From the NCBI GenBank assembly GCA_964436545.1, contig CAYTCJ010000004.1, positions 59,368 to 123,367 on the forward strand: a stretch of DNA of 64,000 nt, read 5' to 3'. Positions 26,119 through 54,511 of the stretch are shown piece after piece (the first letter of the stretch is position 1; each line of letters opens with the position of its first letter). A program made the position numbers and the translations under genes. The notes below the pieces were generated by a model that saw nothing but the letters and a program-made list of their open reading frames with translations, was not told the origin of the DNA and made no database searches. The stretch comes from an uncultured Candidatus Saccharibacteria bacterium (GTDB lineage: Bacteria; Patescibacteriota; Doudnabacteria; UBA920).

Positions 26119-26265
26119 AAGTTGTAAGTAGTAAGTTGTAGGTTGTAGGTAACTTACTACTTATTTACTTACAACTTACAACTAATTTTATGGACCCCGT
26201 TAGAAGTTTAAACAATTATTAAAGCAACTTGATTAACTTAAAATAAATTATTACAATTTTTACTT

Positions 26266-26619: not shown

Positions 26620-26766
26620 TCCCGTTAGAAGTAAGATACCAGAAGTATCTGCAGTTGTGCCTAAGGCACAACTGACTTCTAACGGGATTTTGTTTGACTA
26701 AAAATGTTAAATTCAGTATACTTAGCTAAGTATTAAATCTAAAATTGAAAGGATAGGTGAATTTAA

Positions 26767-27006
26767 GTGGTTGAAGTAAAAAAGAAAGACGGAGAAAGTT
26801 TTGACTCTTTGTTCCGCAGATTTTCCAGAAAAATCCAACAAAGTGGCGTGCTTATTCGTGCCCGCCGAACCCGTTTTTATACTCGGGAAAAAAGTCGCAA
26901 TTTGCAAAAAGTGGCTGCCAGAAGAAGAGCTAAAAATCGAGAAGAGCGAGAAGAGCTGAAAAAATTAGGCAAGCCAATGCCAGTAAGAAAATATGGACGA
27001 AGATAA
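26767..27006 (+). CDS. rpsU: 30S ribosomal protein S21
   Basis: GTG start. FRRFSRK ... GVLIRARRTRFYTREKSR and a basic tail. Confidence 0.82.
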   Translation: MVEVKKKDGESFDSLFRRFSRKIQQSGVLIRARRTRFYTREKSRNLQKVAARRRAKNREEREELKKLGKPMPVRKYGRR

Positions 27007-27108
27007 ACTAAATGGCAAAAATTAAAAAATGACAAAATTGACAAAAATAACCGCAGTTTAATTTTTTGTTCACTTCCGTCGTTTTTGTCATTTTTATTTA
27101 CTTACAAA

Positions 27109-27546
27109 ATGAATTTACAAGAAATAGAAACTCAATTAAAAGATGCCATGAAAGCCAAAGACACGGTAGCCGTGGGAGTTTTACGTGGGTTAAAAACTCG
27201 GGTGCAAAACGAGCAAATCGCCAAACAAAAAACTTTGGAAGCCGAAGAAATTTTTGCCCTGATTCGCAGTGAAATTAAAAAGCGCAAAGAAGCTTCCGAG
27301 AGTTACACCACCGGGGGCAGGTTGGATTTGGCGGAAAAAGAAAGTCAAGAAGCGGAAATGCTAACCAAGTTTTTACCCGCTCAAATGCCCGAAGCCGAAG
27401 TTTTAACTCACATTGAGCAAGTGTTGGCTGGGCAGAGTTTTACTGCCAGCGATTTTGGGAAAGCGATGGGTGCGGTAAAAGCCAAGCTCGGCAATAATGT
27501 AGATAACGCTTTGGTTGCCAAATTATTGAAACAGAAACTAAAATAA
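27109..27546 (+). CDS. GatB/YqeY-domain protein
   Basis: YqeY-like helical protein (LKDAMKAKD ... LRGLKT ... ). Start taken at MNLQ; the tracked ORF starts 24 nt earlier at 27085, inside an upstream TGTCA motif. Confidence 0.75.
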   Translation: MNLQEIETQLKDAMKAKDTVAVGVLRGLKTRVQNEQIAKQKTLEAEEIFALIRSEIKKRKEASESYTTGGRLDLAEKESQEAEMLTKFLPAQMPEAEVLTHIEQVLAGQSFTASDFGKAMGAVKAKLGNNVDNALVAKLLKQKLK

Positions 27547-27643
27547 TCTCGATCCGAATGCTCCAAATTAAATCCGAATGAACCTAATGTTCTTGAAGCA
27601 TAATTCGGATAATTCGGATGTATTCGTTGATTAGGATCGCCTT

Positions 27644-28900
27644 ATGAGTAAAGAACAATACATCACCGGCTTAGATATAGGCACGTCGGCCATTCGGGCG
27701 GTGCAAGGGCGCATTAATCCGGAAGACGGAGTTTTAAATGTGATTGGCGTTTCGGAAAGTGAAAGTTTTGGAATTCGTAAAGGTGTCCTAGTGGACATTG
27801 AAGAAGCTGTTTCCGGGATTTCCAGTGTGCTGGAGAAAGTGGAGCGCATGACCGGTGTGCCCATTGCGAGCGCTTATGTTTCCGTTTCCGGCAGTCATAT
27901 TTCTACTTTGCAAAGTCACGGAGTAATTGCCGTGTCTCGGGCCGATGGGGAAATTAGCGAAGCCGATGTAGTGAGGTGTGTAGATGCCAGCCAAGCGATT
28001 TCGGTTCCGCAAAACCGAGAAATTTTACACGTGTTTCCGAAAAGCTTCACCCTAGACGGCCAAACAGGCATTCGGGATCCGCTCGGAATGAGCGGGGTGC
28101 GTTTGGAAGTGGATACTTTAATTGTGCAGGCAGGCTTGCCGTTTATTCGGAATTTAAGTCGCACTGTGGTGCAGGCCGGTTTGGAAATTAACGATTTAGT
28201 CTTAGCGCCTTTGGCTACTGCCGAATGCGTATTAACCAAACGACAAAAAGATTTAGGCGTAGCAGTGGTGGATTTGGGTGGTGGCACTACCAGTGTGGCG
28301 GTGTTTGAAGAAGGGGATTTGCTCCACGCTTCGGTGTTGCCCATTGGACAACAACATTTAACTAACGATTTAGCCATTGGCCTAAGAAGCAGTATTGAAA
28401 CAGCGGAAAAAGTTAAACTGCTCTATGGTCATACCGACCCTAAGGTGGTAAATAAATTAGAGGAAATTGATTTGTCCAAAATTGACGAGCAGGAAAAGGA
28501 AAGTGTGGAAAGGGGCTATGTGGCGGAAATTATGGAAGCTAGACTGGAAGAAATTTTGGCCATGGTGGCTAAGGAACTTAAAAATATTGGCCGAGATGGC
28601 AAACTGCCTTCCGGCATAGTGCTTACCGGCGGAGGCGCCAAACTGCCGGGCATTGTGGAATTGGCTAAAAAACATTTGCGTTTGCCGTGTATTTTAGGCA
28701 AACCGCAAAATATTACTACGGTGATAGATAAAATTGACGATCCCAGTTTTGCGACTGTGGTGGGGTTATTGCTGTGGGGACAAAAATTTGGACAAGCGAG
28801 CAGTTTTAGCTCAGGCACCATGTTGGCTTCGGTCAAAAGCGCTTTTTCCCGCCCGGGCGCGGAAAAGGTAAAAAAGTGGTTGAGATCATTTCTTCCTTAA
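27644..28900 (+). CDS. ftsA: Cell-division protein FtsA
   Basis: Actin-fold ATPase motifs (GLDIGTSAIRAV; VVDLGGGTTSVAVF; GIVLTGGGAKL). Confidence 0.9.
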   Translation: MSKEQYITGLDIGTSAIRAVQGRINPEDGVLNVIGVSESESFGIRKGVLVDIEEAVSGISSVLEKVERMTGVPIASAYVSVSGSHISTLQSHGVIAVSRADGEISEADVVRCVDASQAISVPQNREILHVFPKSFTLDGQTGIRDPLGMSGVRLEVDTLIVQAGLPFIRNLSRTVVQAGLEINDLVLAPLATAECVLTKRQKDLGVAVVDLGGGTTSVAVFEEGDLLHASVLPIGQQHLTNDLAIGLRSSIETAEKVKLLYGHTDPKVVNKLEEIDLSKIDEQEKESVERGYVAEIMEARLEEILAMVAKELKNIGRDGKLPSGIVLTGGGAKLPGIVELAKKHLRLPCILGKPQNITTVIDKIDDPSFATVVGLLLWGQKFGQASSFSSGTMLASVKSAFSRPGAEKVKKWLRSFLP

Positions 28901-29142
28901 TATAGACGAAACCCTAGATCTGTCCTTTGAAGTCCACGAGAGATGGACGAAGGAGGAAGCCTTGGCGAAGTAGGGCTCAAGTCCTTTCTGCCCTAGATGA
29001 AATCTTGCGTATGATTCGGTTTTTTAGTAATTTTTTTTGTAAGGTAAAGGATTATATGGATAGTTTTTAATATAATATCCGGCTTTAATAAGCCGGATAT
29101 TATATTTTTAAACTTATTTAAGATGAAAAATAAGCCAAAACC

Positions 29143-29171
29143 TTGACATAAAGTAAAAAATGTTATATAAT
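29143..29171 (+). promoter_or_regulatory. Consensus sigma-70 promoter (TTGACA-17-TATAAT) with no downstream ORF
   Basis: cTTGACAtaaagtaaaaaatgttaTATAATg. The next about 290 nt are non-coding with several hairpins before the repeat/GC-island region. Confidence 0.4.
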
Positions 29172-29466
29172 GCGAAGTTATATTATTATTCCTAACTTTC
29201 CAGTTTGGGAAGATCATATAACACAGCTCTTTAAATTATCCCTTAAGGAGGGATTAGACCCTAGTTAAATAGTGCCAATTTGGTTTGGAAATTTAACAGG
29301 GTAGAGTGTTACTTTTTAACCGCGGATTTGTGGCTGAGTTTAAAGTCAGTTGCAAATTAATTGCGGATGGTTTGGGTCTGCCAAGTGGCAGAAGTTGATG
29401 GCGAACGAATGCATAAAGGGCATTTGTCCCATGCGATAGAGATTTCATTTTATTTCACAGATGTTA

Positions 29467-29505
29467 GCGATGCGAATATACGAATGCATGCTAATGATAC
29501 GAATG
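29467..29505. repeat. 39-bp direct repeat, copy 1 of 4, bounding the GC-rich cassettes
   Basis: GCGATGCGAATATACGAATGCATGCTAATGATACGAATG. Other copies at 31079-31117, 31200-31238 and 34444-34480. Confidence 0.75.
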
Positions 29506-29635
29506 AATACGGATAGGGGAATCATAACTCCCCCTACCCCCTCTTTGGAAAAGAGGGGGGAAGAGAGGAATAAAAATGGAATAGCTATTGCATGGGGCAA
29601 ACAGACAAGCCCCCAATGCAGAAAGGAGCACAAAA

Positions 29636-30769
29636 ATGTGCTCATCAATCACGCGTCTTATCCTCGCCGTGGGTCTCGCGACCCTCGGCACAACCGTGTC
29701 CGCACAGTACGCCCCGACGCCCGACCCGGGCGAGCGAGCGCTCCGGCAGCAGCAGGCGCCACCCCCGCCGGCTCCGAAGCCCGAGGCTCCGAAGCCCGAG
29801 GCTCCGAAGCCCGAGGCTCCGAAGCCCGACCCGTTTTTTGATGGTAGCTGGGGAGGATGGAGGGCTTGGCTCGGAGGGATCGCCCTCCTGATCGCCGCCG
29901 GCATCGGGGTGGTGGTTTGGCGTCGCCGGCGGAACAACCGCCCCGCACACGACGATCATGGCAACGACCCCCAGCCCCCCGCGAACCCGAACCCGAACCC
30001 GAACGCGCCGCCGCCCCCCACGCCTGTCAACCACATGATAGCGTTGATGCTCGTCGGTGGTGCGCTCGCACTCGCAACCCTCGGTGCCCCGTCCGTGTCC
30101 GCCGCCCCTATGGAGGGGTGTGTGGTGACGGCTGTCAACGGGATGGTCGGCGACGCTGAAATGCCAGTGTTGGTGTCCGGCGCGGACAATTTCGTTTCGT
30201 GCCACGCCCCCGGCGTGTCGGAAGTGAAGCTCACGGATGGGAAGGGGCAGGTTGTTCCCGTCAAGAAGCTGGTAAAGACCAGCGATGGGTTCAATTTCTC
30301 GTACACGCCCCCGGCCGGAACCGCTGCGGAGTTGCATGTGCAAGCTGGTAGTCGCAAGGTTGCCTCGCTTTACACTAACAGCGCCTTCGGCGCCTGGACT
30401 GCCTACACGGCGGTTCAGAGCGTCCGGCCGGAGATCCGCGCCGCGGCCACGGACGCCAGCGCCGCGCTCACCGCCGCCAAGTCCGCGGCCGAGGCGGTGA
30501 CGAAGCTCACCGGCGTGGTGGCCGACCACGGCACCCGCATCACCGCGCTGGAGTCTCGGCCCGCCCCGACGGTCGACCTCTCGGCCTACGACCGCCGGCT
30601 TCGCGAGCTCGACGGCGAGCTCGCGAAGGTTAAGGCCGCACAGGTCGCCACCGACGCCCAGGTAGCCAAAAACGCCGAGGGGCTGGAAGCCCTCGGCAAT
30701 CGCCGAGTCGGCAAGGGCGGAATTTTCGGCAGGTCGGGCAGGCTCGCCGACCTGCCCGAGGCCAAGTAG
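29636..30769 (+). CDS. GC-rich (about 68%) secreted/anchored Pro-rich repeat protein with a coiled-coil C-terminus (possibly two fused cistrons)
   Basis: RBS AAAGGAG then ATG; signal peptide MCSSITRLILAVGLATLGTTVSA; (PKPEA)x4 encoded by a 15-bp tandem DNA repeat at 29762-29821; TM helix plus RRRR; second signal-like segment at 30037. Codon usage is foreign to the host. Confidence 0.55.
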   Translation: MCSSITRLILAVGLATLGTTVSAQYAPTPDPGERALRQQQAPPPPAPKPEAPKPEAPKPEAPKPDPFFDGSWGGWRAWLGGIALLIAAGIGVVVWRRRRNNRPAHDDHGNDPQPPANPNPNPNAPPPPTPVNHMIALMLVGGALALATLGAPSVSAAPMEGCVVTAVNGMVGDAEMPVLVSGADNFVSCHAPGVSEVKLTDGKGQVVPVKKLVKTSDGFNFSYTPPAGTAAELHVQAGSRKVASLYTNSAFGAWTAYTAVQSVRPEIRAAATDASAALTAAKSAAEAVTKLTGVVADHGTRITALESRPAPTVDLSAYDRRLRELDGELAKVKAAQVATDAQVAKNAEGLEALGNRRVGKGGIFGRSGRLADLPEAK

Positions 30770-31078
30770 CCGGCGGCCAAGAAGGCGCCGGCGAAAAAAG
30801 AAAAAGAAGAAGAAAAGGAGGAAGAAGGAGAGGTCTAACCTTTCCCCCTACGCATAGCCAGTGCAGGCTATGAGTAGGGTAACAACCAAGCATGGGGGAT
30901 TTGTGCACTCAAATCCCTCCAGTTCTTTCTTTCTGTTTTGGGTAGTTTTTACCCCCTCCCTTAACCCTCCCCACAAGGGGGAGGGAAAAAGCAGGGTGAA
31001 TACCACCCCCTCCGATTAACATTGGAGAACATCTCCTATTTTAGGAGGAGAAGAGAAAGAGGGAAATGGAGAAAAATC

Positions 31079-31117
31079 GCGATGCAAATATACGAATACA
31101 TGCTAATGATGCGAATT
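31079..31117. repeat. 39-bp direct repeat copy 2
   Basis: GCGATGCAAATATACGAATACATGCTAATGATGCGAATT. Confidence 0.7.
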
Positions 31118-31199
31118 TACGGATTCTACAGATATCTACAGATGAAGACAAAAGACACAAATATTGGTCCACAGATCACACGGATACACAGATATTAGT

Positions 31200-31238
31200 G
31201 CGATGCGAATATACGAATGCACGCGAATGATGCGAATG
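31200..31238. repeat. 39-bp direct repeat copy 3
   Basis: GCGATGCGAATATACGAATGCACGCGAATGATGCGAATG. Confidence 0.7.
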
Positions 31239-31353
31239 TATATAAATAGTTAATAATAGTTGTAAGTTGTAAGTTGGTAAGTAAAACAGAAATCAGCAAA
31301 GCAGTAAGCACATTAAAAAATCCCGCCAGTAGGGCGGGTGAGAATAAGAAAAA

Positions 31354-31611
31354 TTAAAAAGGAATAGGTATACCGGTTTTAGCTGATACTTGTTTTGCCC
31401 AATCTTCTAGTCTTTCTATTCGGTGGCGATTGACTATCATTTCCTGTTCAAAGCCTTTTACGGTTTTACAAAGATAATCCAGAGTGGAGGTTATGGAGTC
31501 AACTTTTTGTTCTAATTTGTTAAAGCGAGTGTCAATATCCGCCTTCATTTCATCTAAATATTCAAATAAGGGCTGAAAGTTTGTGGTTGTCGTGGGAGTT
31601 TTTTTAGGCAT
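31354..31611 (-). CDS. Small hypothetical coiled-coil protein (85 aa)
   Basis: AT-rich ORF inside the island. No motif. Confidence 0.35.
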   Translation of the reverse strand: MPKKTPTTTTNFQPLFEYLDEMKADIDTRFNKLEQKVDSITSTLDYLCKTVKGFEQEMIVNRHRIERLEDWAKQVSAKTGIPIPF

Positions 31612-31864
31612 AAGGATAGAAAAAATTATGTTTATTATATTATATCAAGTTATTGAATTTTTGGAAATATACAGCTAAAATATAATGCGGTTTTTTGGTG
31701 GGTAGCTTTTTTTACCCCCTCCTTCCGATGTGTATCGGAAGACTCCCCCTATGTTAGGGGGAGAGGGGAGAAGAGAGGTACCCGGCAAGAAAACGCGGTA
31801 CAAGTGTCCCTTGCCGGGATGCGAAAAATTTTGAGGAGGAAAAATATCAATTGCAAGATGATAG

Positions 31865-31913
31865 TTTACGGATGTTACAGATACCTACAGATGGGGACAA
31901 AAAGGCACGGATG
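31865..31913. repeat. 45-49-bp ACRGAT-phased repeat unit (copy U1)
   Basis: TTTACGGATGTTACAGATACCTACAGATGGGGACAAAAAGGCACGGATGG. Related units at 33048-33096, 34303-34351 and 34361-34407. Confidence 0.65.
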
Positions 31914-32027
31914 GAAAATCATAACCCCCTCCTAACCTCCCCTTCCGCCAGAGGCGGACAGGTATCTTAAGGGGAGGAAGAAGAGAGAAAAACCGGATGA
32001 GCAAGAAAGGACATTTTTTGTCATTCC

Positions 32028-32111
32028 GAATCCTGATATTCATCAGGACAAGTTTAATTTGGAATCCAGAAAATGGATTCCCGTTTTCACGGGAATGACA
32101 GCAAATAAGCA
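32028..32111. repeat. Family-A palindromic element immediately upstream of the 32234 cassette gene
   Basis: TGTCATTCCGAATCCTGATATTCATCAGGACAAG ... GGATTCCCGTTTTCACGGGAATGACAG. Confidence 0.55.
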
Positions 32112-32233
32112 ATTTTATTATTGCTATAAGCTGATCACTGGGCACTTACCACTGATCACTAATTTGTGTTTTTTCTTGCTCGTCCGGTGCCTTTGGGCAA
32201 ACCAATCCGGACAGGCGAGAAAGGAGAATTCGC

Positions 32234-32968
32234 ATGAGTTTACTCATTGTGATTGGTCTCCTGATTTTCGCCCCATGGTGCGCCCAGGGGCAAACTCGGC
32301 TGCTGGTCCCGCGGGCGGACTCGGCTACCGCCATGGTGCGGTGCGGGGCCAATCTGGAAAGCGTAAAGGCGGAGAATCAATTGACCCGTCAGTACGTTTT
32401 TACAGGGGAGGAGACTCTGACGGGGATGCAATACTGTGTTGAGAGTCGCCACGCTCTCGTGGATGACCGCAACCGGTACCGTGTTCCGGCAGGGACCATT
32501 GGCTGGTTGTCTTCGGACGGCCAGTCGGTGGTTCTGGAGCAGTGCGTCAATATGGCGCACTGCGAGGGTTGTCCTCCCGCCCCACCTCCTCCGCCCCCGC
32601 CCCCGCCGGCGCCGAAGCCGGAACCCAAGCCGGAACCGCCCCCACCGGCACCCGAGCCCCCGGCGCCAAAGCCGGAACCCACCCCCGAGCCGGTGGTTGT
32701 CCGGCCCGAGCCACCCCCGCGGGTGGTTTTGCCCAAGCCCGAGCCACTGGCGCCGGCGCCGAGGCCCGCTCCCGTGGTCAAGAGGGGCGGGCACGGGAAG
32801 CTTATCGGGGGGTTGGTTGGGGCGGGGGTCGCGGGGGCAGTGGCGTATTTCGCCACTCGCGACCGCCACGACGCGTCCGCCCCGCCGGCCCCGGGCGTAA
32901 AGCCGGGGGTGCCGGTAGTTTCCCCGGCCTCACGGCCGGGGGGAGCCGGATTCGCCATCCGGTTCTGA
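32234..32968 (+). CDS. GC-rich (about 70%) secreted Pro-rich surface protein with a C-terminal TM anchor
   Basis: RBS AAAGGAGAATTCGC then ATG; signal peptide MSLLIVIGLLIFAPWCAQG; Cys-containing domain; PPAPPPPPPPPPAPKPEPKPEP linker; LIGGLVGAGVAGAVAYFA TM. Confidence 0.55.
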   Translation: MSLLIVIGLLIFAPWCAQGQTRLLVPRADSATAMVRCGANLESVKAENQLTRQYVFTGEETLTGMQYCVESRHALVDDRNRYRVPAGTIGWLSSDGQSVVLEQCVNMAHCEGCPPAPPPPPPPPPAPKPEPKPEPPPPAPEPPAPKPEPTPEPVVVRPEPPPRVVLPKPEPLAPAPRPAPVVKRGGHGKLIGGLVGAGVAGAVAYFATRDRHDASAPPAPGVKPGVPVVSPASRPGGAGFAIRF

Positions 32969-33047
32969 CATCTTGCCCCAAGCGGTAATGGGCGAATTTT
33001 ACCGCAAAGACAGGAACTTCGTGTGTCCTGTCTTTTTTCGTTTACAG

Positions 33048-33096
33048 TTTACGGATGCTACAGATAACTACAGATGGGGACAAAATATACGGATGC
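33048..33096. repeat. ACRGAT-phased repeat unit (copy U2)
   Basis: TTTACGGATGCTACAGATAACTACAGATGGGGACAAAATATACGGATGC. Confidence 0.65.
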
Positions 33097-33270
33097 AGAG
33101 TTTTATACGACGTATAGGACTCCGCCAGCTGGCGGATAAGTAGTATAAGACCTATACAAATATAGTAAGGAATTTTAACTTATTCTAAAGATTGACAAAA
33201 ATAGCAAAATGTGTTAAAATTGAATGTCCCAAAATTTTGGGGATTTTTGTGAGGTGGTATTTTTAGAACT

Positions 33271-33300
33271 GGATTCCGGCTCAAGGCCGGAATGACAAAA
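33271..33300. repeat. Family-A palindrome upstream of the protease cassette
   Basis: GGATTCCGGCTCAAGGCCGGAATGACAAAA. Confidence 0.55.
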
Positions 33301-33367
33301 ATCGGGATCACAGTCAAGGATAAGCCTTAGAAATATCACTTTCCAAAAATTCCATAGGAGGTGGGCG

Positions 33368-34144
33368 ATGGCCCAAGAAAATCCTCGTCGCTGGAGCGAC
33401 GAGGATCTGCTGCTTTTAATAGTGGCTCTCTTGTGCCTGTCAGCAGGTTTGTTGCTGATAGGAGATGAGAGTGGGGAAACGGTTCCCCACGGGCCAGTTG
33501 CCCCGCCCCAGCAACAATACCAAACCCCCCGCCCGAGGGAAGAGTATCGGGCGCCCCGCCGGTGGGAAGAACCGGCACCTCGACAGGAGGCACCTGCCCC
33601 GGCCCCTCAGCGAACCACACCCGCCCCTGGGGTGTGGGAGGACATTCGGTCGAGGAATGTCCTTGTCCGGCAAGGGGCTGGACAGGGAAGCGGGGTCCTC
33701 ATTGGCCACGGGCTGGTCCTGACGGACTTTCACGTGGTTGATGGGGGATGGGGGGCGGTGATTGACGGTCACGGGACCGCAATCGTGCAAGCTTGGGACG
33801 AGGGTAATGACCTCGCAATCCTTAAGCTTGTGGGATATGACCCCACACCCCGTCTGGACTTCGCGTTTGACCCGGACTTGCTCCGTCCGGGCACACGTCT
33901 GGTTACCGTGGGTAACCCTAGAGGGGTCACGGTGTCTCAGACTGGGTGGGTGGAAGCCGGGTCAGGTCAAGGCTTCTGGGCCAGGATGGACACCTGGTCC
34001 GGGCCCGGGGCGAGTGGGAGCTTAGTATACTCGCTGGATGGTGCCCCGGTGGGCATTGTCCAGCAGTGGGACGGAACCGGCATTCGGGTGAAGTGCCGAG
34101 ATCTCCGTCCCATTGTCCGACTCCTCAACTATATTGGGCGCTAA
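33368..34144 (+). CDS. GC-rich trypsin-like (S1 family) serine protease with N-terminal membrane anchor and Pro-rich linker
   Basis: RBS TAGGAGGTG. Catalytic triad contexts: VLTDFHVV (His), NDLAILKL (Asp) and GPGASGSLVY (Ser). Confidence 0.68.
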   Translation: MAQENPRRWSDEDLLLLIVALLCLSAGLLLIGDESGETVPHGPVAPPQQQYQTPRPREEYRAPRRWEEPAPRQEAPAPAPQRTTPAPGVWEDIRSRNVLVRQGAGQGSGVLIGHGLVLTDFHVVDGGWGAVIDGHGTAIVQAWDEGNDLAILKLVGYDPTPRLDFAFDPDLLRPGTRLVTVGNPRGVTVSQTGWVEAGSGQGFWARMDTWSGPGASGSLVYSLDGAPVGIVQQWDGTGIRVKCRDLRPIVRLLNYIGR

Positions 34145-34302
34145 TTGCGCCTACCTTTCCAGAGGCAGGGTTCAAGTCCTCTGGCGCGTGCTTAGACAAC
34201 ACGCGAAAGGTTTTTTACGAACAAGGCGGGTTAAACCGACCTTAAGTAGAAAAATCACTTAATTGTCTCCGCTCAGAGCTTTGTGCTTCTGGGCGGTTTT
34301 TT

Positions 34303-34407
34303 TGTTTACAGATGCTACGGATGTCTACAGATGGGGACAAAAAGACACGGATAAATACAGCTTACAGATGCTACGGATGTCTACAGATGGGGACAAAAGA
34401 CACGGAT
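34303..34407. repeat. Two tandem ACRGAT-phased units (U3, U4; 58-bp period)
   Basis: TTACAGATGCTACGGATGTCTACAGATGGGGACAAAA(A)GACACGGAT twice. Confidence 0.7.
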
Positions 34408-34443
34408 ATTGGTTCACAGATCATGGATTTACACAGATGTTAT

Positions 34444-34480
34444 GCGATGCGAATATACGAATGCATACGAATGATACTAA
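34444..34480. repeat. 39-bp direct repeat copy 4
   Basis: GCGATGCGAATATACGAATGCATACGAATGATACTAAT. Confidence 0.65.
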
Positions 34481-34602
34481 TAAAAACAGATTGCAGATAA
34501 TTTATATGACATATTAGACCTATAAGTCGCATTATCTTTATCATTTGACACAGAAAAAAAACAGTGTCATAGTAATTAAAAATAAGCGAATGAAATAAAA
34601 AT

Positions 34603-34932
34603 ATGCCAACTCATAACATAAATATCGCAGAACAAAAATTAAGAGACTTTGCCTTAAAGCTGTTAGAAGAAAAACAGTTAGACATTGGTGATGAAGAATT
34701 AAAAGCCCAATTAGCCGAAGATTTATACGAGCGTTTGGAGGAACGGGTGAATGCGGAAATTTTAGCCGGGTTGCCCCCGGAAAAACTGGAAGAGTTTGAT
34801 AAACTGTTAACCAGTGGAAGCAATGAGCAATTAAGCGAGTTTTGTTTAAAAAATATTCCCCATTTACAAGAACTCTTAAATACCACTTTAACCCAATTTA
34901 GAGTAAGGTATTTAGGTTTGGAACAAAAATAA
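34603..34932 (+). CDS. Small acidic hypothetical protein (109 aa)
   Basis: ORF directly upstream of the giant gene. Helical and E/L-rich. Confidence 0.45.
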   Translation: MPTHNINIAEQKLRDFALKLLEEKQLDIGDEELKAQLAEDLYERLEERVNAEILAGLPPEKLEEFDKLLTSGSNEQLSEFCLKNIPHLQELLNTTLTQFRVRYLGLEQK

Positions 34933-34952
34933 GTATAGTCAAATAAATTATA

Positions 34953-34980
34953 GATTCCGCATCAAGTGCGGAATGACAAA
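34953..34980. repeat. Family-A palindrome overlapping the start of the giant ORF
   Basis: GATTCCGCATCAAGTGCGGAATGACAAA. Confidence 0.55.
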
Positions 34981-34983
34981 CCC

Positions 34984-37900
34984 ATGAGTGAATACGGTCG
35001 CTTTTTGTCACCAGAAGCTCGGCACGAAGCGGAAAAACCAAAATTTGTTTTTACAGATATTAGCGACATTCAAGAAGGAATGGCGCAAGATGCTTCGTTG
35101 GCGCAATTTAACGAAAAACCTGAAGCGCTGGAAGAGAATAATGTTTCTTGGTGGAAGAAACCTTTTAAAAAGGCTTTTTGGAAAAATGTAGGGAAGCGAG
35201 GAACCAGTTTAGGCCGAAGTATTTGGAAACAAAATTTAGCTCGGGATTATTACGAAGTTTCGGGAAAAAAACAAGCCGAGGCCAAAATGCAGGCAAGTGG
35301 CAGTTTGTTTGCAGTGGAAAAAAAGTTTGACCCCAATGAGCCGGGCATAAGCGAAGCCGAAAAACAAAACCGACTTAAAGCGCAAAAAACCGCGCATGAT
35401 GAATATGTAAGTGCCATTACCCGAAGGTTTGCGGGAGCTACGGGTGAACTGGCAGGTGATTTTGTCCATAAAGAACACGGCGGTGAAGCGGTGGAAACTT
35501 TAGGCAGGACTGAGGCGGAAGTCCAGATTAAGCGAAAATTAGAAGAAACGGTTAGGGCTTTTGCCGGCGGGGAGATTAGCGAAGAACAGGTTCTGGAAAA
35601 AGAAAAGGCCATTTGGGCAGAAATTAAAGGGGTTAAACCGGAAGTGGTTAAAAAGGGGAAAATGTATGCGAGTAATTTGTTAGAAATGGCCAAATGGGCA
35701 AAGGAAGAAGTAGAAAAACAAGTGAGACAGAATATTGACCACAACTTGGCTGTGAGAAATTTACAGTTAGATTTTGATGTGGTAGTAGGTAGGGCAAAAA
35801 GTGGCGCAAAAACCGAGGCGCAATTTAATGCTGTGGAAAACGCGGTAGATAAAATTATGGCTAAAACCCGAGGTTTGCCTAGCATTATTTTTAACGAAGC
35901 CACAATTACTGCTGCGGTTACCGCTGCCTATTTTGTAGAAAAGAGTTTATTTACCAAGGGGCTTTATAGTGTTGCTGGTTTAGTAGGATTTGGAGTGGGG
36001 GCAGGTGCGACAGCGGCTTTTAAAGAAGGTAAGACTTTAGAAAAAGAAAGAATGCAACATGCCCGGGAAATGGCGCAAGGTAGAAAGTTTGAGGAAAGTA
36101 GTGCAACTCGGCGGAAGGAGTTGGAAAAATTCCGTTTAAAGTTTCAGACAGCCGAAGAATTGGAACAGAATTTAGACGCCAAGTTGTTTAATTTTTTGGA
36201 AAGTGGAACAGATTTACGAACACTAAGTCCGGAAGGGTATAAACAAGCTTTAGAAGCCGTGGCCGAAATTGACGCGCGCATTTTGGAAGGCGAGAGGGGA
36301 GTAGTGGTAAAGAAAAGAAAATGGTTAAAGTTTTGGAAAAAAGAGTATAAAGAAGAAAGACATAGTGCCGACTTAATTGGTTATTCCGATCCTACGCAAA
36401 TTGCCAAAGAAGAAGGTCAGTTAGATATGGCTCGGGCTGCCGCCAAAATCGCCTTAAAAAAGTGGTGTTTGGCCAATGGTAAAACCGAAGCTCAGTTTAA
36501 AGCAGATTTGCAAGCGAGTGTAGAAGCCAAGATTCATGGGTTTTATGCAGGTGAGGAAGGGATAGACAAACAGAACGAAAGATTTAAGGAATTTAAAAAG
36601 AAAAAAATGTGGCAGGCGGGGAAAAAGGCTGCGGTATGGGGGACAATTTTTGGCACGGCTATTCAAGAAGCCAGTGCCTTTAAGCAGGACCACACTTACG
36701 GACTTGCAGAACATGCTTGGGATGCCTTTAGGGGGAACGAGCATCATTTGGCTCCAGAGGAAACCGCTACAGCCCTAGAGAATGCTTTTGCCTATGGGCA
36801 AAAAAATATCAACGAAGGTTTGGATTATTTATTTCCTACAGCGCACGCAGCCGGTCCGAATATAGAAGTACAGATTGGTGGGAGTAAATACAGTCTGCCC
36901 GATGGTTTTAGATTAGAAGACAATCCGGCTACGGCTAATCCGAACGATAAAGTTTTAATTGATAGCAAAGGTGTTTCGCATACGTTAGAGTTTAAAGCCG
37001 ACGGCACGCCCACGGCTGATAGCAAAAAGTGGTTGTTAGATAATGGTTATAAACTTGATGAAATAATTTCGCCCGCCGGTCCCAAAGGGATTCATAGTTT
37101 GGATGTAGACGCTACCAAAAAACAATTTCCTGACCTCGCGCATCATACGCGTATAGACTGGCACGATGAACCGGGTAAGTTTAAAAGCGCAATTCATAAT
37201 ATGTGGCTGGAGTTTGAAGGTAAACAGCAAATGGGTTATTTGGTAACTCGAGGAGACAAAGTATATTTAGACTGCAGTAAAGTGATTCAAAATTTTGTGA
37301 AAGAGGTATCTGAAAGAATTAACGATCCGAGTTTTGGCCAAGTGGAAGGGTATACTAATGCAGACGGCAGTCCGTTTGTGGACAGTAAAATGATGCACTT
37401 AAAGGACCAAATTCAGCAGGCCATTAATAATGGCGACATTAATAGATATTTTCAAGCTGTGGTGATTCCCACCGAAGGGGCGAATAGCGCAGGTTTGAGC
37501 GATTTAGTGCAAGGTGCAGACAGTAGTGGTTTAATTGAGCTGAACGGCAAGTATGATTGGTCTAAAATGTTTATTGATCCGGCTACGGGCCATGTAGACC
37601 CTAAAATGCTACACGATGGGCATTTGCCGTTTCGGTTTTTGGAAATGCGGTTTGATGGCCACGTAATGAACACGGCCCAAGGAGCCGGAGAAGCCGGACC
37701 TATGCCTTTCTTTAAACTAACGCCACCGCTAGATGAATTGCCACCGACTACTTTCCCGCCCCTAACTTATGTGGGGAGAAGAAAAGGTTTGGAGGAAACT
37801 AACTGGACACCACCCCCTCAGCGTCCAAAACGAGAACCTTTGCCAGAAATACCATATTATGGATATTATAATAGTCCAGAACGAAGTGAATATTATCGTC

Positions 37901-40311
37901 AGAGAATATCTCCAACGTTAAGAGAAAATCCAGATGCTATTTTAGATTTTAATAGAGAGATGGATTGGTACATTTCTAATCTTGAAAATCAAAACCCAGA
38001 ATACGCAGATGAATTAAGAGAGTTAATGCAACAGCCTGATATGTTAATTCCAATGTCTAATGAATGTAAGGCTGTTGCTTGCATTCCAGTTTATGCTTTA
38101 GGTGAGGGAAAAGGTATAGAACACACTCTTGAACAGTATAGGAAACAAATTATAAATGGTTCGGTAAAATCTGATGAATTTGAGTTATTGTTATTCTTGA
38201 ACCATCCACAAGATAGACTTAAAGGTATGACTATTTTATCTGGGGCAGAAGAAAGAGTTAGAAATGGGAATCCGGAAGCGTATGACACAGCTGAGGTGAT
38301 TAGGCAGTATAAACTCAAGCATCCTGAATTAAAAATTAGAGTACTAGAAAAAGAATACGAAACCAGACCAAAGTGGGGAGTAATAATTAAATCAGTTTAT
38401 GATGTTGCTTGTTTAAGGGCTAAGTCGCGTTCCAATCCAGTAAGTAAGGATATAGTTTTACTTACAAATGATGCGGATGTGAGAGATATGTCCGATACGT
38501 ATTTAAGATTAGTCATTGATGAGTTTGATAAAAGTGATGGTAGTAAACAGATTGATGGGTTAGCTACTAGAATGGATGATGACCCCAATGTTTATAGAAA
38601 ATGGCCAAATTTCTTTTTGGCAAATCGTTTTCGTCAATTTCTTGAAGCTCAAACCAGAGCAGGCATAAGTGGTTCTGGGGAAATAAATTCATTACCTTAT
38701 AATTTCTCATCCCGTGGTTCAAAAGAAAAGTATATTAATACTTGGGGCGCCAGTACGGCTTTGAGAGGTAGTACGTATTGTGGGATAGGCGGGGCAGATT
38801 TGAGTGTAGATGCAGGGGCCGATTCTGAGTTAGGGAGAGTAATTACCAATTCCAGAAGAGGTGGTAAGAGAAAATTAGATAATGCAAATTTTCCCATAAA
38901 GTTTTTGAATTCCGCATGGCTTGAGACAGACCCTAGAAGGCCGTTGGGGATTTATAAGAAAGGTAAGCCATTAGTAGCTACTTGGAGCGAATGGGATGAA
39001 ATGAATGTTTATGGAGAGACTCTTGCAGATCAGAATGAAGGCGATTCAGAAGCTTTAGATCCGGTAAGACTTTCCAAAGAAATAAACGTCATGATGAAGT
39101 CATGGTGGGGTTTGGATGCTGATTCAATGGTTGTTAAAAAAGCATTAGGCTGGTTAGGATTAAAAGAAGGTGATTATGATATCGTGGATATTGGATATAC
39201 AGATAGGGTAGGTGTTCAAAAAACTTACAGAGGAATCAAAATTAATAATATTTCGAATTTAAAGACTGGAGTAGATGCTTGGAAAACCAAGCGGGAAAGA
39301 CTTGATGAGGCGAAAGCAAATCGTTTGAAAAAAGCTCAAGCGGTGAAAAGTATTGGACAAGCATCAACCCCTTCAAACCCAGATAATGGCAAAATATGGG
39401 ATGAAGAAACTTTTAGATTTATTGAACCTCAGCCGGAAGCGCCAATTAATCAAACCACAGAAGATGATGATTTGTGGGATGATGAAGGTAATAGGCCTGT
39501 GCCCAAAAATTTAAAATCGGGTAAGCTTCCTTCTGTGGCTAGTGAGCCTAGCAGACTGCCAGAAAGCGGTGGAAATACTAAACCGGTTGAGTCAGGGCCT
39601 GGCAGGGGAGCAAACGAGCCAGTACAATCAGCTCAAAGAGAAGCTCCGGCACCCAAAGCTGAACAAGGTAATGTGAGAGAAAGAGAATCTAGGGAAACCA
39701 AAATGATTGAGCTATTAAATGCTTTTGATGCCAATCCTTATGAATTTATTTATGACAAAGGATTAGCAAGAGTTAGCGAAGCCGGGTTTAGCACCAATAG
39801 GTTTTTAAAAGAATTAAGACTTCAACATGGTATCAGTAATGCCGATTTGGCAACCATAAAACAAAGAACTAGAGTTATGAGTCCCAAAGGTCCAATAATG
39901 GGGAAAGGCAGAGAAGTGGCGCAATATGCAAGGATGATTTTAGCCACTAAACCCGAGATGCGTGCACAATGGATAGGATTGGATGACGGAAGGTATAATA
40001 AATTTTCTAAGGAGTTGATTGTTGCGGAAGTAAAAAAAGATATTAGCCAAAAAACTTTTAATCCAGATAAGATTGTAGAGTTAGAAAGGGAATTCGCACA
40101 AGGGCCGATTTTTGTGCTGGACAGTGTTTTGTCGGCTAATCCGGCTGTGTTAAGAAAAGCTAATGAGGCTTTTAAACAGGCAATAAACAATGGCGAAGCG
40201 CAAGATAATTCAGATGATAAAGCTAGAGTTTTTAAAACTACCTTAGACGCATACCAACAAGGTTCATTAAAGCTTACCAAGCAACGAGGCAGAAAAAGCC
40301 AGAAAAAATAG
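34984..40311 (+). CDS. Giant (1776-aa) membrane-anchored protein of unknown function; possible GT-A-like central domain
   Basis: Continuous ORF. K/E-rich coiled-coil N-terminal third; two TM helices around aa 300-350 (TAAVTAAYFV ... GLVGFGVGAGATAAF). Central segment with IPVYALGEG ... LLTNDADV, reminiscent of nucleotide-sugar transferase IPVYN/DxD motifs (weak). Alternative GTG start at 34966. Confidence 0.7.
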   Translation: MSEYGRFLSPEARHEAEKPKFVFTDISDIQEGMAQDASLAQFNEKPEALEENNVSWWKKPFKKAFWKNVGKRGTSLGRSIWKQNLARDYYEVSGKKQAEAKMQASGSLFAVEKKFDPNEPGISEAEKQNRLKAQKTAHDEYVSAITRRFAGATGELAGDFVHKEHGGEAVETLGRTEAEVQIKRKLEETVRAFAGGEISEEQVLEKEKAIWAEIKGVKPEVVKKGKMYASNLLEMAKWAKEEVEKQVRQNIDHNLAVRNLQLDFDVVVGRAKSGAKTEAQFNAVENAVDKIMAKTRGLPSIIFNEATITAAVTAAYFVEKSLFTKGLYSVAGLVGFGVGAGATAAFKEGKTLEKERMQHAREMAQGRKFEESSATRRKELEKFRLKFQTAEELEQNLDAKLFNFLESGTDLRTLSPEGYKQALEAVAEIDARILEGERGVVVKKRKWLKFWKKEYKEERHSADLIGYSDPTQIAKEEGQLDMARAAAKIALKKWCLANGKTEAQFKADLQASVEAKIHGFYAGEEGIDKQNERFKEFKKKKMWQAGKKAAVWGTIFGTAIQEASAFKQDHTYGLAEHAWDAFRGNEHHLAPEETATALENAFAYGQKNINEGLDYLFPTAHAAGPNIEVQIGGSKYSLPDGFRLEDNPATANPNDKVLIDSKGVSHTLEFKADGTPTADSKKWLLDNGYKLDEIISPAGPKGIHSLDVDATKKQFPDLAHHTRIDWHDEPGKFKSAIHNMWLEFEGKQQMGYLVTRGDKVYLDCSKVIQNFVKEVSERINDPSFGQVEGYTNADGSPFVDSKMMHLKDQIQQAINNGDINRYFQAVVIPTEGANSAGLSDLVQGADSSGLIELNGKYDWSKMFIDPATGHVDPKMLHDGHLPFRFLEMRFDGHVMNTAQGAGEAGPMPFFKLTPPLDELPPTTFPPLTYVGRRKGLEETNWTPPPQRPKREPLPEIPYYGYYNSPERSEYYRQRISPTLRENPDAILDFNREMDWYISNLENQNPEYADELRELMQQPDMLIPMSNECKAVACIPVYALGEGKGIEHTLEQYRKQIINGSVKSDEFELLLFLNHPQDRLKGMTILSGAEERVRNGNPEAYDTAEVIRQYKLKHPELKIRVLEKEYETRPKWGVIIKSVYDVACLRAKSRSNPVSKDIVLLTNDADVRDMSDTYLRLVIDEFDKSDGSKQIDGLATRMDDDPNVYRKWPNFFLANRFRQFLEAQTRAGISGSGEINSLPYNFSSRGSKEKYINTWGASTALRGSTYCGIGGADLSVDAGADSELGRVITNSRRGGKRKLDNANFPIKFLNSAWLETDPRRPLGIYKKGKPLVATWSEWDEMNVYGETLADQNEGDSEALDPVRLSKEINVMMKSWWGLDADSMVVKKALGWLGLKEGDYDIVDIGYTDRVGVQKTYRGIKINNISNLKTGVDAWKTKRERLDEAKANRLKKAQAVKSIGQASTPSNPDNGKIWDEETFRFIEPQPEAPINQTTEDDDLWDDEGNRPVPKNLKSGKLPSVASEPSRLPESGGNTKPVESGPGRGANEPVQSAQREAPAPKAEQGNVRERESRETKMIELLNAFDANPYEFIYDKGLARVSEAGFSTNRFLKELRLQHGISNADLATIKQRTRVMSPKGPIMGKGREVAQYARMILATKPEMRAQWIGLDDGRYNKFSKELIVAEVKKDISQKTFNPDKIVELEREFAQGPIFVLDSVLSANPAVLRKANEAFKQAINNGEAQDNSDDKARVFKTTLDAYQQGSLKLTKQRGRKSQKK

Positions 40312-40340
40312 GAAATAAGGGAATTAATATGTTCGGTTCC

Positions 40341-40367
40341 AAACCCCCCGATATTCTCGGGGGGTTT
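40341..40367 (+). terminator. Intrinsic terminator after the giant ORF
   Basis: AAACCCCCCGATATTCTCGGGGGGTTT plus a T-run. Confidence 0.55.
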
Positions 40368-40418
40368 GGGTTTAAATTTGGCATTTTTTACTTTTGTGCT
40401 ATACTGATTTTATATAAA

Positions 40419-40586
40419 GGGTCTGTTTCCAAATGTCATTTTGTCTGCAACTGTAAAATTTTGGCTACTTGTCACAAAAAATTTTTCCGCTTATCCTACG
40501 GATAAGCATCAAAATTTATTTGTGCCAATTTGCTCTAATTTAATAGTTTCGTCTTAAAAGCACATTCGGAAACAGACCCAAAACAA
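40419..40586. repeat. About 168-bp element bounded by 18-bp inverted repeats upstream of ftsZ
   Basis: GGGTCTGTTTCCAAATGT ... ACATTCGGAAACAGACCC. Internal CTTATCC-TAC-GGATAAG hairpin. Confidence 0.4.
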
Positions 40587-40685
40587 ATATCAAAATAAAA
40601 AATCAATCGTTTGTATTTTAAGGTTAACCTTTCAACACGTTTGATTTTTTGTTTGATTTAATTTATTCTGAAATTATCAACTAAA

Positions 40686-41912
40686 ATGAAATCACAAAAT
40701 CGTATGGGAGAAGTTAAACCAAAAGTTCAAAGTTTTGCCAGAATTAAAGTTTTAGGCGTGGGCGGGAGTGGCACCAGCGCTGTTAACCGTATGAGCGAAC
40801 TCGGCATTAAAGGCGTAGAATTTATTGCCATTAATACCGATGCGCAGGCTCTGCATAATAATAATGCAGATGTAAAAGTGCATATTGGGAAAAATATTAC
40901 CAAAGGTCTAGGCAGTGGCATGAATCCGGATTTAGGTCGGCAAGCGGCGGAAGAAAGCATTGAGGAGCTGGAGGAAGTGGTAGACAATGCCGATATGGTG
41001 TTTATCACTTGCGGGCTAGGGGGCGGAACCGGCACCGGAGCTTCGCCCATTGTCGCGGAGCTCGCTAAGAATAAAGGCGTCTTAACCGTTGCAGTCGTGA
41101 CCCGTCCGTTTACTTTTGAAGGCAGTAAAAGAAAAGAAGTGGCCGATGCTGGCTATGATAATTTAAAAGATAAAGTCGATGCCATTATTGCCATCCATAA
41201 CGATAGGATCCTGCAAATTATAGACAAGAAAACTTCACTCATAGATTCGTTTAAAACCGTAGACGAAGTTTTAAGGCAAGGCATTTCCGGTATTTCGGAT
41301 TTAATTACCACACATGGTTTGGTGAATGCTGACTTTGCCGACGTGCGTGCCATTATGCAAGACGCGGGCACAGCCATGATGGGGATTGGGCGAGCGAGTG
41401 GCGAGAACCGTGCGAGCGAAGCTGCGAAGCTCGCGGTAAATTCTCCGCTGTTAGATATGTCCTTAGACGGCGCAAAAGGAGTACTCTTTAATATTACCGG
41501 CGGAAAAGATTTGGGTATGTTTGAAATTGACGAAGCCGCGAAAGTGATTACCAAAAATATTGACTCCGATGCCAAAGTTAAGTTTGGCGCGGTGATAGAT
41601 GAAAACTTAACCGATGAAATTAAGATCACGGTCATTGCCACGGGCTTTGATGGCAACAATCGTTTAAGTGGTATGTCGCCCATAAGTTTTGATGAACCCA
41701 AAAAAGGTTTTTTGGGCACAGGCAATTTTAGCGCTCAACCCCAGAGCCCTCCGCAAACTGCGGTGGAATTAAGACGACCACTTTTTAACCCTAAACCAAT
41801 TGAACCTAAACAACCCCCAGTCATTCAAACTACTCAACCGACAGAAAATTTAAATGCAGATAACGAAGACGAATTGGAAATCCCGGCGTTCATTAGAAAG
41901 AAAATGAAGTGA
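40686..41912 (+). CDS. ftsZ: Cell-division GTPase FtsZ
   Basis: Tubulin signature GGGTGTG (GLGGGTGTGASPIVAE), T7 loop, and a variable C-terminal linker with conserved tail. Confidence 0.95.
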   Translation: MKSQNRMGEVKPKVQSFARIKVLGVGGSGTSAVNRMSELGIKGVEFIAINTDAQALHNNNADVKVHIGKNITKGLGSGMNPDLGRQAAEESIEELEEVVDNADMVFITCGLGGGTGTGASPIVAELAKNKGVLTVAVVTRPFTFEGSKRKEVADAGYDNLKDKVDAIIAIHNDRILQIIDKKTSLIDSFKTVDEVLRQGISGISDLITTHGLVNADFADVRAIMQDAGTAMMGIGRASGENRASEAAKLAVNSPLLDMSLDGAKGVLFNITGGKDLGMFEIDEAAKVITKNIDSDAKVKFGAVIDENLTDEIKITVIATGFDGNNRLSGMSPISFDEPKKGFLGTGNFSAQPQSPPQTAVELRRPLFNPKPIEPKQPPVIQTTQPTENLNADNEDELEIPAFIRKKMK

Positions 41913-41980
41913 GGCGGAGAAAGTTGTAAGTTGGTAAGTGAGTAAGTTGTAAGTAGTAGAGTTCTAAGTAAACAAAGAAT

Positions 41981-42337
41981 ATGATAATTAAGTCATTTAC
42001 AGAAATTATTGCTTGGCAAAAATCTCACCAATTAGTTTTAGATGTTTATATTTTAACATCAGAGTATCCAAAACACGAGATGTTTGGTTTAGTCAGTCAG
42101 AGTCGTAGGTGTGCGGTATCTATTCCTTCTAATATTGCGGAAGGTTTTAAGAGAAAATCGCTTAACGATTCATTGCATTTTTATAATATCGCGGAAGCGT
42201 CATTAGAAGAGCTAAAGTATCAACTTTTACTCGCTAAAGATTTAAAATACGTTTCAGAATTTAAATATCAAAAAGTTTTTGAACTATGTGAGGAGGTTGG
42301 AAAGTTAATTTATGGTTGGATAAAAATTCAAAAATAA
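41981..42337 (+). CDS. Four-helix-bundle protein (TIGR02436 / '23S rRNA IVS protein' family)
   Basis: IPSNIAEGFKRKS hallmark motif. The gene is bracketed by inverted GTAAGTTG-word arrays (41915-41960 and 42340-42375). Confidence 0.7.
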   Translation: MIIKSFTEIIAWQKSHQLVLDVYILTSEYPKHEMFGLVSQSRRCAVSIPSNIAEGFKRKSLNDSLHFYNIAEASLEELKYQLLLAKDLKYVSEFKYQKVFELCEEVGKLIYGWIKIQK

Positions 42338-43166: not shown

Positions 43167-43332
43167 TTATATATTCCACAGATCACTGATCCGCCAGCTG
43201 GCGGACACGGATACACAGATATTAGTGCGATGTGAATTGGTTATTAGAAAAAAATAAATAGCAATGAAAAACGCCCTTAGAGTTCTGGTTGAACCTTTGG
43301 GCGTTTTTGCTTTTGCGGGGAATGAACTCTGG

Positions 43333-54425: not shown

Positions 54426-54511
54426 ATGATATAAATTAAATAAATGGTAAAAGTTTAGCTAGTAATTTTTGTCATTTTTGTTCAATTTTGTCATTCTTGT
54501 CAATTTAATTT

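Follow-up and report, generated by a model that had tools for sequence, protein, structure and literature searches.

The genes ftsA and ftsZ form one of the most conserved adjacent gene pairs among bacteria, and the Patescibacteria, or candidate phyla radiation (CPR), are ultra-small bacteria in which many known divisome parts are missing. In Patescibacteria genomes from an aquifer, islands, single transferred genes and prophages have been reported, with competence and pili proposed as the route of DNA uptake and with old transfers losing their GC signature; the word ftsZ occurs nowhere in the text of that paper (PMC12455944). Here we analyse a stretch of 64,000 nucleotides from an uncultured bacterium of this group (contig CAYTCJ010000004.1, positions 59,368 to 123,367, called the window below), in which ftsA still precedes ftsZ on one strand, as is canonical, at a distance of 11,785 bp. 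We propose that the DNA between the two genes is probably an old, clade-specific locus of fast-evolving envelope genes that is at the same time a hotspot of gene gain.

The ftsA-ftsZ spacer and its inherited core

The window is a typical segment of a Patescibacteria chromosome with a host GC of about 40%. It carries dnaK, dnaJ, topA, dprA, der, hisS, S21, yqeY, ftsA and ftsZ, and further nrdR, ribonucleotide reductase, comEC, relA and groEL, and all FtsA relatives found are in Patescibacteria assemblies. The initial annotation of this DNA had described the spacer as an insertion of about 11.8 kb free of housekeeping genes. Its limits at 28900 and 40686 are confirmed by Pfam, and no housekeeping gene is present among the Pfam-scanned open reading frames (ORFs) of the interval. 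The genes on which the argument turns are the following.

27644-28900, + strand: ftsA (Pfam FtsA 6.7e-35, SHS2_FTSA 3e-28)
29636-30769, + strand: GC1, 377 aa, 69% GC, third-codon GC 0.81
32234-32968, + strand: GC2, 244 aa, 69% GC, third-codon GC 0.75, an orphan
33368-34144, + strand: GC3, 258 aa, 62% GC, third-codon GC 0.64, Pfam Trypsin_2 6.5e-11 over the full profile
34603-34932, + strand: DUF5663 gene, Pfam DUF5663 2.4e-10, 36% GC, host-like
34966-40311, + strand: gene of a giant membrane protein, host-like composition, no known domain
40686-41912, + strand: ftsZ (Pfam Tubulin 1.3e-45, FtsZ_C 3.3e-37)

The loci of relatives (given as L numbers) were taken from scans of genomes and metagenomes. 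Both genes could be located in 57 loci. They are adjacent in 52 of these, mostly from more distant lineages, with gaps of 33-1054 bp, and measurably split in five, by 11.8 kb in the window, 12.5 kb in L124, 7.1 kb in L011, 3.3 kb in L047 and 1.9 kb in L092 (gap 1883). For 15 further CPR loci, which have no ftsA in the 1.7-10 kb available upstream of ftsZ, the same split is presumed. All the split CPR loci except L092 (19 of 20) fall in one region of the FtsZ neighbour-joining tree, within which FtsZ is at least 72% identical to that of the window. When set against the 52 adjacent loci, the interval is thus supported to be a derived interruption of the conserved pair. We found no description of a split ftsA-ftsZ pair in Patescibacteria in the literature.

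The content of the interval is also shared in part. The succession of S26 peptidase, hisS, HIT, S21, yqeY and ftsA is common to the window and its relatives, and FtsA of L011, L047 and L124 is 67-70% identical to the window's. In L011 (FtsA 70%) the order is ftsA, a GC1 homolog, DUF5663, a gene for a 1561-aa protein and ftsZ. In L124 (FtsA 67%) ftsA is followed by AbiEii, a 154-aa gene, a GC1 homolog and a 343-aa secreted protein, and then by DUF6922/AbiEii, DUF5663, a 1607-aa protein and ftsZ. The GC1 homologs hence occupy the same slot in both, and the DUF5663 homologs are directly upstream of the giant gene in both. No relative within the clade shows an empty site, L011 and L124 holding the homologous core. 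The interval proteins of L047 have an architecture like that of GC1 and GC2, with homology undetectable.

The giant ORF, which had been noted from the beginning, is real, with 1781 aa from a GTG start and 1775 aa from the first ATG. Homologs of its product are present upstream of ftsZ in 10 loci, making up a family of 10 members of 1,000-2,000 aa, and the window protein matches its counterpart in L011 with E = 7e-13 across the transmembrane (TM) region. No match to it was found in Pfam, NCBIfam, PHROGs or the sequences of the PDB, and our reading of the literature gave no paper that mentions DUF5663 or the pairing of DUF5663 with a giant protein. The giant gene and the DUF5663 gene are host-like in GC and in third-codon GC, and about half of the interval (34.5-40.3 kb) is host-like in composition. 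Because of the shared order and the host-like composition, about half of the 11.8 kb would be native and would predate the split of the lineages. Taken together, the comparison of the loci shows an inherited core consisting of a predicted surface protein of the GC1 family, DUF5663 and the giant membrane protein next to ftsZ.

The rest of the interval differs in composition. Three blocks rise from about 40% to 62-72% GC and coincide with the three ORFs GC1, GC2 and GC3, and the atypical DNA is confined to these three genes, about 2.6 kb of the 11.8 kb. An Rfam scan of the whole window at gathering thresholds gave two tRNAs only and a permissive scan of 28.85-34.65 kb gave chance-level matches only, and therefore the GC-rich blocks are not known structured RNAs; ARAGORN found no tRNA in the interval. 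The third-codon GC of the three genes compares with 0.40 in host genes, and the bias is present in every synonymous amino-acid family, meaning that it is more than an effect of a composition rich in Pro and Ala. The tetranucleotide usage, a check that had been suggested with the initial annotation, sets the GC-rich genes apart from the host, but the giant gene and the DUF5663 gene (r = 0.92 with the rest of the window) and the non-coding DNA of the interval (r ~0.8, 0.78-0.80) match the host. The claim that the interval carries three GC-rich genes of foreign codon usage is thus right as to composition (62-69% GC), but the word foreign does not apply to GC1, in which the bias is a stable trait of the family, as discussed below.

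GC1 is predicted to consist of a signal peptide, a TM segment, a Pro-rich linker, a second TM or hydrophobic helix, an Ig-like beta-sandwich and a long coiled coil. The beta-sandwich is modelled with a pLDDT of 75-84, which is of moderate confidence, and its likeness to filamin-type Ig and S-layer domains is generic only (Foldseek E ~2e-3). When 1.84 billion representative proteins were searched exhaustively by profile, a family of 10 members emerged. All the contexts that could be recovered are CPR-like, having AT-rich flanks or ftsA synteny, with no GC1 relative outside such contexts in that search. The metagenome contigs scanned with the GC1 alignment gave no match, an exact look-up of GC1 and GC2, with the starts as taken here, found neither on record, and we found no description of the GC1 family in the literature. 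The coding GC is above that of the flanks or the genome in L034 (0.65), L127 (0.64), L124 (0.60 vs 0.44), L125 and L011, and is not elevated in the homolog of L126.

Between the window and L034, GC1 has a synonymous divergence (dS) of ~1.0 and a nonsynonymous divergence (dN) of 0.44, while for housekeeping genes, compared between the window and relatives of 91-93% identity, dS is 0.76-1.6 and dN is 0.04-0.09. The GC1 protein evolves 5-10 times faster than housekeeping proteins. The third-codon GC is kept at 0.81 in the window and 0.83 in L034 amid AT-rich flanks. Since dS is ~1 and the third-codon GC is kept, the GC-richness of GC1 is maintained and is not the fading trace of an import; as read from these alignments, it is a trait of the family rather than a sign of recent arrival. 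As to the cause of the bias, the coding sequence may be under selection, gene conversion may be biased, or lineages may have exchanged the gene repeatedly.

The gene is followed by another conserved feature.

30842-31075, + strand: structured element 3' of GC1, ~235 nt, folding z-score -8.45

The element is 84% identical over 239 nt to positions 1863-2098 of L034, compared with ~68% for the coding sequence, and one of its hairpins holds two compensatory pairs; neutral sites are saturated between the lineages. It has no Rfam match and is probably a functional RNA or DNA element. Similar hairpin modules of polypurine and polypyrimidine are present at 29520-29575, 31686-31800 and 31919-31990.

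Based on these data, it may be asked whether the core is more than a set of genes that happen to be kept together. One possible answer, which we put forward only tentatively, is that a family-level clade recruited the giant protein, DUF5663 and a GC1-type protein as new parts of the divisome or of the envelope in contact with a host, and that the third-codon GC of the GC1-type genes is held at 0.65-0.83 in genomes of 40-45% GC by selection or biased gene conversion, so mimicking transfer though being vertical.

Variable DNA next to ftsA

In contrast to this core, the part of the interval next to ftsA and GC1 is variable. Relatives of 93% FtsA identity (83% at the nucleotide level) are collinear with the window to base 28899 and unrelated beyond, holding other content after ftsA. 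L003 and L004, with identical FtsA, have only 291 bp in common downstream of ftsA, with L003 entering another GC-rich gene at the end of its contig. The contigs of close relatives mostly end 54-900 bp beyond ftsA, as is usual where DNA varies between strains or is rich in repeats. In L004 a gene for a 607-aa phage virion/tape-measure protein (4453-6276, - strand; phrog_14476, 4e-40) begins ~270 bp past ftsA and may represent a prophage at the same hotspot. The window itself bears the following trace.

28976-28996, + strand: relic of the FtsA C-terminus (LKSFLP*), in frame, 96 nt past the true stop (WLRSFLP*)

A search for [KR]SFLP* through all six reading frames of the window and of the loci fetched by then recovered nothing but genuine FtsA ends and this relic, and the independent Logan contig L001 carries the relic as well. 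A second copy of the FtsA end was not found near the end of ftsZ, the two copies sitting 96 nt apart. The relic suggests a past integration or replacement exactly at the 3' end of ftsA. The GGTTCAAGTCC strings, considered as a tRNA-like att site, were rejected, being terminator hairpins or the FtsA relic.

GC2 and GC3 belong to this strain-specific part. GC2 has the predicted layout of a secreted domain containing Cys, a Pro-rich linker and a C-terminal TM anchor, and has no relatives in the fetched loci or in viral contigs, the large protein databases not having been searched for it. GC3 is a predicted membrane-anchored, trypsin-like serine protease with the His/Asp/Ser triad intact as read in the translation. 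Among 5.8 billion proteins its best non-self match has 29% identity over most of the length, a 39% match covering 46%, and it has no relatives in viral contigs. These two genes are the best candidates for recent gain, and from their composition and orphan status they are probably foreign, from GC-rich donors. Between GC1 and GC2 there is one gene on the other strand.

31354-31611, - strand: small AT-rich gene, 85 aa, coiled-coil-like, with a promoter-like site at 31667-31639 and a terminator at 31338-31322

The product of this small gene has no family match above threshold. In L036, L051, L055, L061 and L068, GC-elevated genes with a signal peptide or TM segments and with no Pfam domain are present upstream of the giant gene, and some of the GC-elevated secreted proteins of relatives form shared families. 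Genes for AbiEii toxin and DUF6922, of the abortive-infection/toxin-antitoxin type, lie inside the ftsA-ftsZ interval of L124 (5487-6110 and 11191-12085), and the hotspot therefore gathers defence-type genes too. The comparison of relatives, looked to earlier as the check on a shared interval, has thus returned the same core of the GC1 family, DUF5663 and the giant protein, but GC2, GC3 and the repeat modules described below are not shared. It shows a variable part by ftsA and GC1 that is made up of predicted strain-specific secreted and membrane proteins, here GC2 and GC3, with AbiE and a phage gene in relatives, and it supports the view that the ftsA-proximal stretch is a site where foreign or variable DNA accumulates.

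As for the way in, new DNA would probably enter by natural transformation, for which the window encodes a plausible set of proteins: ComEC (52189-53661), DprA (18481-19587) and a type IV pilin-like protein with the N_methyl motif (7222-7770). Alternatively, it may be brought by elements integrating at the 3' end of ftsA, of which the relic here and the phage gene in a relative could be remnants. The acquired DNA would then be trimmed to the coding sequence under selection.

These data bear on the proposal of the initial annotation that the interval is a genomic island, which in its strict form would mean a single, recent foreign island delivered by an integrative element, its recombinase being either encoded beyond the window or no longer there. 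The three strongly GC-rich genes agree with this proposal, as does the homology to the 93%-identity relatives that stops exactly at the ftsA stop; integration at the 3' end of ftsA would also be in keeping with the FtsA relic and the phage gene of L004. If it were true, it would not be expected that L011 and L124, with only 67-70% FtsA identity, show the core genes in the same succession, that 6 kb of the interval is host-like, that the GC-rich genes stand apart with host-like DNA between them and with host-type promoters of their own, or that the two copies of the ftsA end are 96 nt apart instead of bracketing 11.8 kb. The annotation had also stated that no integrase, transposase or recombinase is encoded here, and Pfam indeed finds none in the 37 window ORFs scanned (nearly all ORFs of at least 150 aa in the 64 kb), which again speaks against a single island. 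Because of the synteny in L011 and L124 the single-island proposal is largely refuted, and we regard it as quite improbable. What stands of the island claim is the derived interruption, with variable or foreign DNA gathering by ftsA; what falls is that it was one event and a recent one.

It may also be considered that the assembly is a chimera, in which GC-rich reads of a co-occurring organism were joined to a CPR contig at short repeats. The source contig is metagenome-assembled, and the Logan contig L001 (SRR11567520, the same read set), which covers 26382-29554 of the window at 100% identity, ends just 5' of GC1 and within a repeat. Against the chimera, a second Logan contig of that read set, L002, covers 32922-34335 at 100% identity, from the end of GC2 through the AT-rich spacer and the whole of GC3 into its downstream flank, and so includes the GC/AT junctions on either side of GC3 and the one at the 3' end of GC2. 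At least two Logan contig ends are inside repeats (29526-29559 and tandem D1 copies) and not at the GC transitions. The GC content changes at the start and stop codons themselves, and the ribosome-binding sites ahead of the genes are AT-rich and of the AGGAG type, such as the host uses. The same layout of GC1, a GC-rich coding sequence with AT-rich flanks, is present in four other assemblies (L011, L034, L124 and L127). With all this, the chance of a chimera is very slight indeed.

Note also that a gene downstream of ftsZ gives the case of import to which GC1 can be compared.

43333-44220, - strand: purC (SAICAR synthetase), 63% GC, outside the interval, 1.4 kb past ftsZ

purC is 85% identical in amino acids and 81.5% in nucleotides to a gene from a contig that is non-CPR and has 62.7% GC, its named matches are Bryobacteraceae, Solibacterales and Thermoanaerobaculia, and it is absent from this position in relatives. 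When donor-like identity, a matching donor GC and absence from sister genomes are taken together as a test of a xenolog, purC alone shows all three, while GC1 has no non-CPR relative, has syntenic homologs and has a dS of ~1. On sequence comparison purC is demonstrated to be a recent transfer from an Acidobacteriota-like donor. The case is direct evidence, at the level of sequence, that genes have passed from Acidobacteriota-like bacteria to this episymbiont lineage, and it may give a clue to the host.

By analogy with purC, it could be that the GC-rich genes, with GC1 among them, have all come to the hotspot through repeated import or exchange, be it between CPR lineages or out of a GC-rich reservoir, and that their position reflects a preference for the site rather than descent. 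That unameliorated import from GC-rich bacteria occurs here is proved by purC, the codon usage correlates with that of the Acidobacteriota-like contig (purC r = 0.93, GC1 r = 0.83, which is partly generic to GC-rich genomes), and the GC1 identities are mildly incongruent with those of FtsA and FtsZ. Yet the exhaustive profile search gave no GC1 relative beyond CPR-like contexts, the AT-rich promoter, the hairpin on the side of the ribosome-binding site and the 3' element are kept together with GC1 between the window and L034, and the dS of GC1 is close to that of housekeeping genes. We therefore consider re-import of the whole set, GC1 with it, unlikely, though worth keeping in mind.

The DNA past ftsZ has further content of its own. 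L035, the nearest relative on the side of ftsZ (FtsZ 91% identical), has another GC-rich gene (2330-3277, 315 aa, no solid Pfam match) and is without purC; between ftsZ and the orf145 homolog it carries a gene for a PD-(D/E)XK nuclease together with the GC-rich gene. From this content of L035 it follows that the region downstream of ftsZ is variable too. Directly after ftsZ in the window is a four-helix-bundle protein (41981-42337, + strand), kept at that place in L046, L053, L055, L066 and L079. It scores 119.9 bits with TIGR02436, above the cut-off, and 48.4 bits with the Avd profile of diversity-generating retroelements, for which the cut-off is 80 bits; such a retroelement was rejected, with Avd below its cut-off and no reverse transcriptase in the window.

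Predicted transcription units and repeats

Promoters and terminators were called by pattern matching only, and those of the interval are as follows.

29069-29106, + strand: likely ftsA terminator, a perfect 17-bp inverted repeat (100% complementary) followed by a T-run
29143-29171, + strand: promoter-like site of GC1, TTGACA, 17 nt, TATAAT, 12/12 matches, with a leader of ~460 nt
33192-33220, + strand: promoter-like site of GC3, TTGACA, 17 nt, TG-TAAAAT, 11/12 matches, extended -10
34269-34296, + strand: intrinsic terminator of GC3, pattern match
34545-34573, + strand: promoter-like site of DUF5663 and the giant gene, pattern match
40338-40370, + strand: terminator of the giant gene, 14-bp stem
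40378-40405, + strand: promoter-like site of ftsZ, TTGGCA, 16 nt, TG-TATACT

Terminators are thus recognised after ftsA, GC2 (by eye), GC3 and the giant gene. The arrangement TTGACA-17-TATAAT is also present upstream of the GC1 homolog of L011, and patches of the GC1 leader and the hairpin adjoining the ribosome-binding site are kept in L034. Each gene thus looks like a unit of its own, with a predicted promoter of the host's sigma-70-like type and an intrinsic terminator, and ftsA and ftsZ are predicted to be transcribed separately. Such separate, host-style units would be more readily explained by domesticated genes than by the fresh insertion of a block.

The dense repeat modules claimed in the initial annotation are real.

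31078-31257, + strand: repeat modules D4, D1, D4, with hexamers ACAGAT/ACGGAT/CGAATG phased at 9-10 bp
29456-29510, 31860-31911, 33043-33094 and 34300-34490, + strand: other copies of the modules
43205-43237, + strand: partial copy by purC

All the copies are on the + strand and all but the partial one lie within 29.4-34.5 kb. D1 and D4 are devoid of dyad symmetry, and neither of their strands, taken as single-stranded DNA, folds better than shuffled sequences do (z +0.7 to +1.5). They are absent from the 116 loci fetched by then, save this genome's own contigs, and seven exact matches of a D1 16-mer in viral contigs were judged, not computed, to be compatible with chance. Phased protein-binding sites are a possibility for the modules.

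Could the modules be recombination sites, making the interval an integron-like array of cassettes, that is, an attC cluster with no integrase? The genes of the same orientation are each parted by module copies on the + strand, and a related module adjoins the transferred purC. On the other hand, the modules are direct, phased hexamers that lack dyad symmetry and fold like shuffled DNA, the genes come with consensus promoters and terminators of their own, no tyrosine recombinase is found in the scanned ORFs of the window, the modules are missing from the fetched loci other than the contigs of this genome, and short-period tandem repeats are common in the intergenic DNA of this genome. An array of this kind is very improbable.

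The tandem repeats just mentioned, of a period of 7-19 nt, are present right after many genes of the window, with units such as AAGTTGT, AAATGACAA and ATTTTTGTC and at sites such as 26119-26147, 27010-27048, 41921-41970, 45008-45076, 54465-54506 and 61198-61296. D1 and D4 resemble these repeats, and the whole looks like a genome-wide family of intergenic repeats. Hairpins that end in GGAATGACA occur eight times in the window, and similar AATGACAG hairpins are found in L034 and L127.

Significance and comparison with known systems

It should be noted that several data weigh against our reading of the spacer as an old locus of envelope genes with a hotspot beside it. First, the FtsZ neighbour-joining tree puts one group of the adjacent state inside the split region, which could mean that the split had two origins, that it was reversed, or that the tree is not to be trusted so far back. 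Second, no donor was found for GC2 and GC3, whose foreign origin is argued from composition and orphan status, and the contigs of the closest relatives are short, so that the two genes may be missing there for that reason only. Third, the envelope function is a suggestion drawn from predicted signal peptides and TM segments, from Pro-rich linkers and from a moderately confident Ig-like fold. Finally, GC1 of L124 is nearer to that of the window (31%) than to that of L011 (26%), L011 and L124 being the closer genomes; the GC1 identities are thus mildly incongruent with FtsA and FtsZ, and for this reason GC1 may have been exchanged among CPR lineages. Nevertheless, the reading of an old clade-specific locus is the one that we hold to be probable.

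If it is correct, a CPR clade in which the ftsA-ftsZ pair is broken by an uncharacterised giant membrane protein and by predicted surface proteins that evolve fast offers concrete candidates for functions in division or in attachment to a host. GC1, a native gene that stays persistently GC-rich, is the most curious residue of the analysis. It is also a caution for the detection of transfer from composition, as recent import is not the only way for a gene to be strongly atypical.

Finally, we compare the locus with the systems it resembles. Like integration hotspots and flexible islands, it is flanked by core genes, differs in content among close relatives and has atypical genes, and the hotspots likewise gather surface proteins, toxin-antitoxin or abortive-infection genes and phage remnants. 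Unlike them, it sits inside the ftsA-ftsZ pair of the dcw cluster and has a vertically inherited core across a family-level clade, with no integrase found in the window and no tRNA in this interval. Compared with the classical integrase-borne island, it departs in composition, in integrase and in the empty site. With integron/attC arrays it has in common small genes on the same strand with repeated non-coding modules between them, but here there is no integrase in the window, the modules do not form hairpins and the genes have promoter-like sites of their own. As in the dcw cluster elsewhere, both genes are present in canonical order, but the gaps in this clade are from 3.3 kb to more than 12 kb and the two genes are in apparently separate transcription units. 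Among transfers of the type described for aquifer Patescibacteria (PMC12455944), purC is a clean example, while GC1 differs from them in that it keeps its atypical GC though it is not recent.

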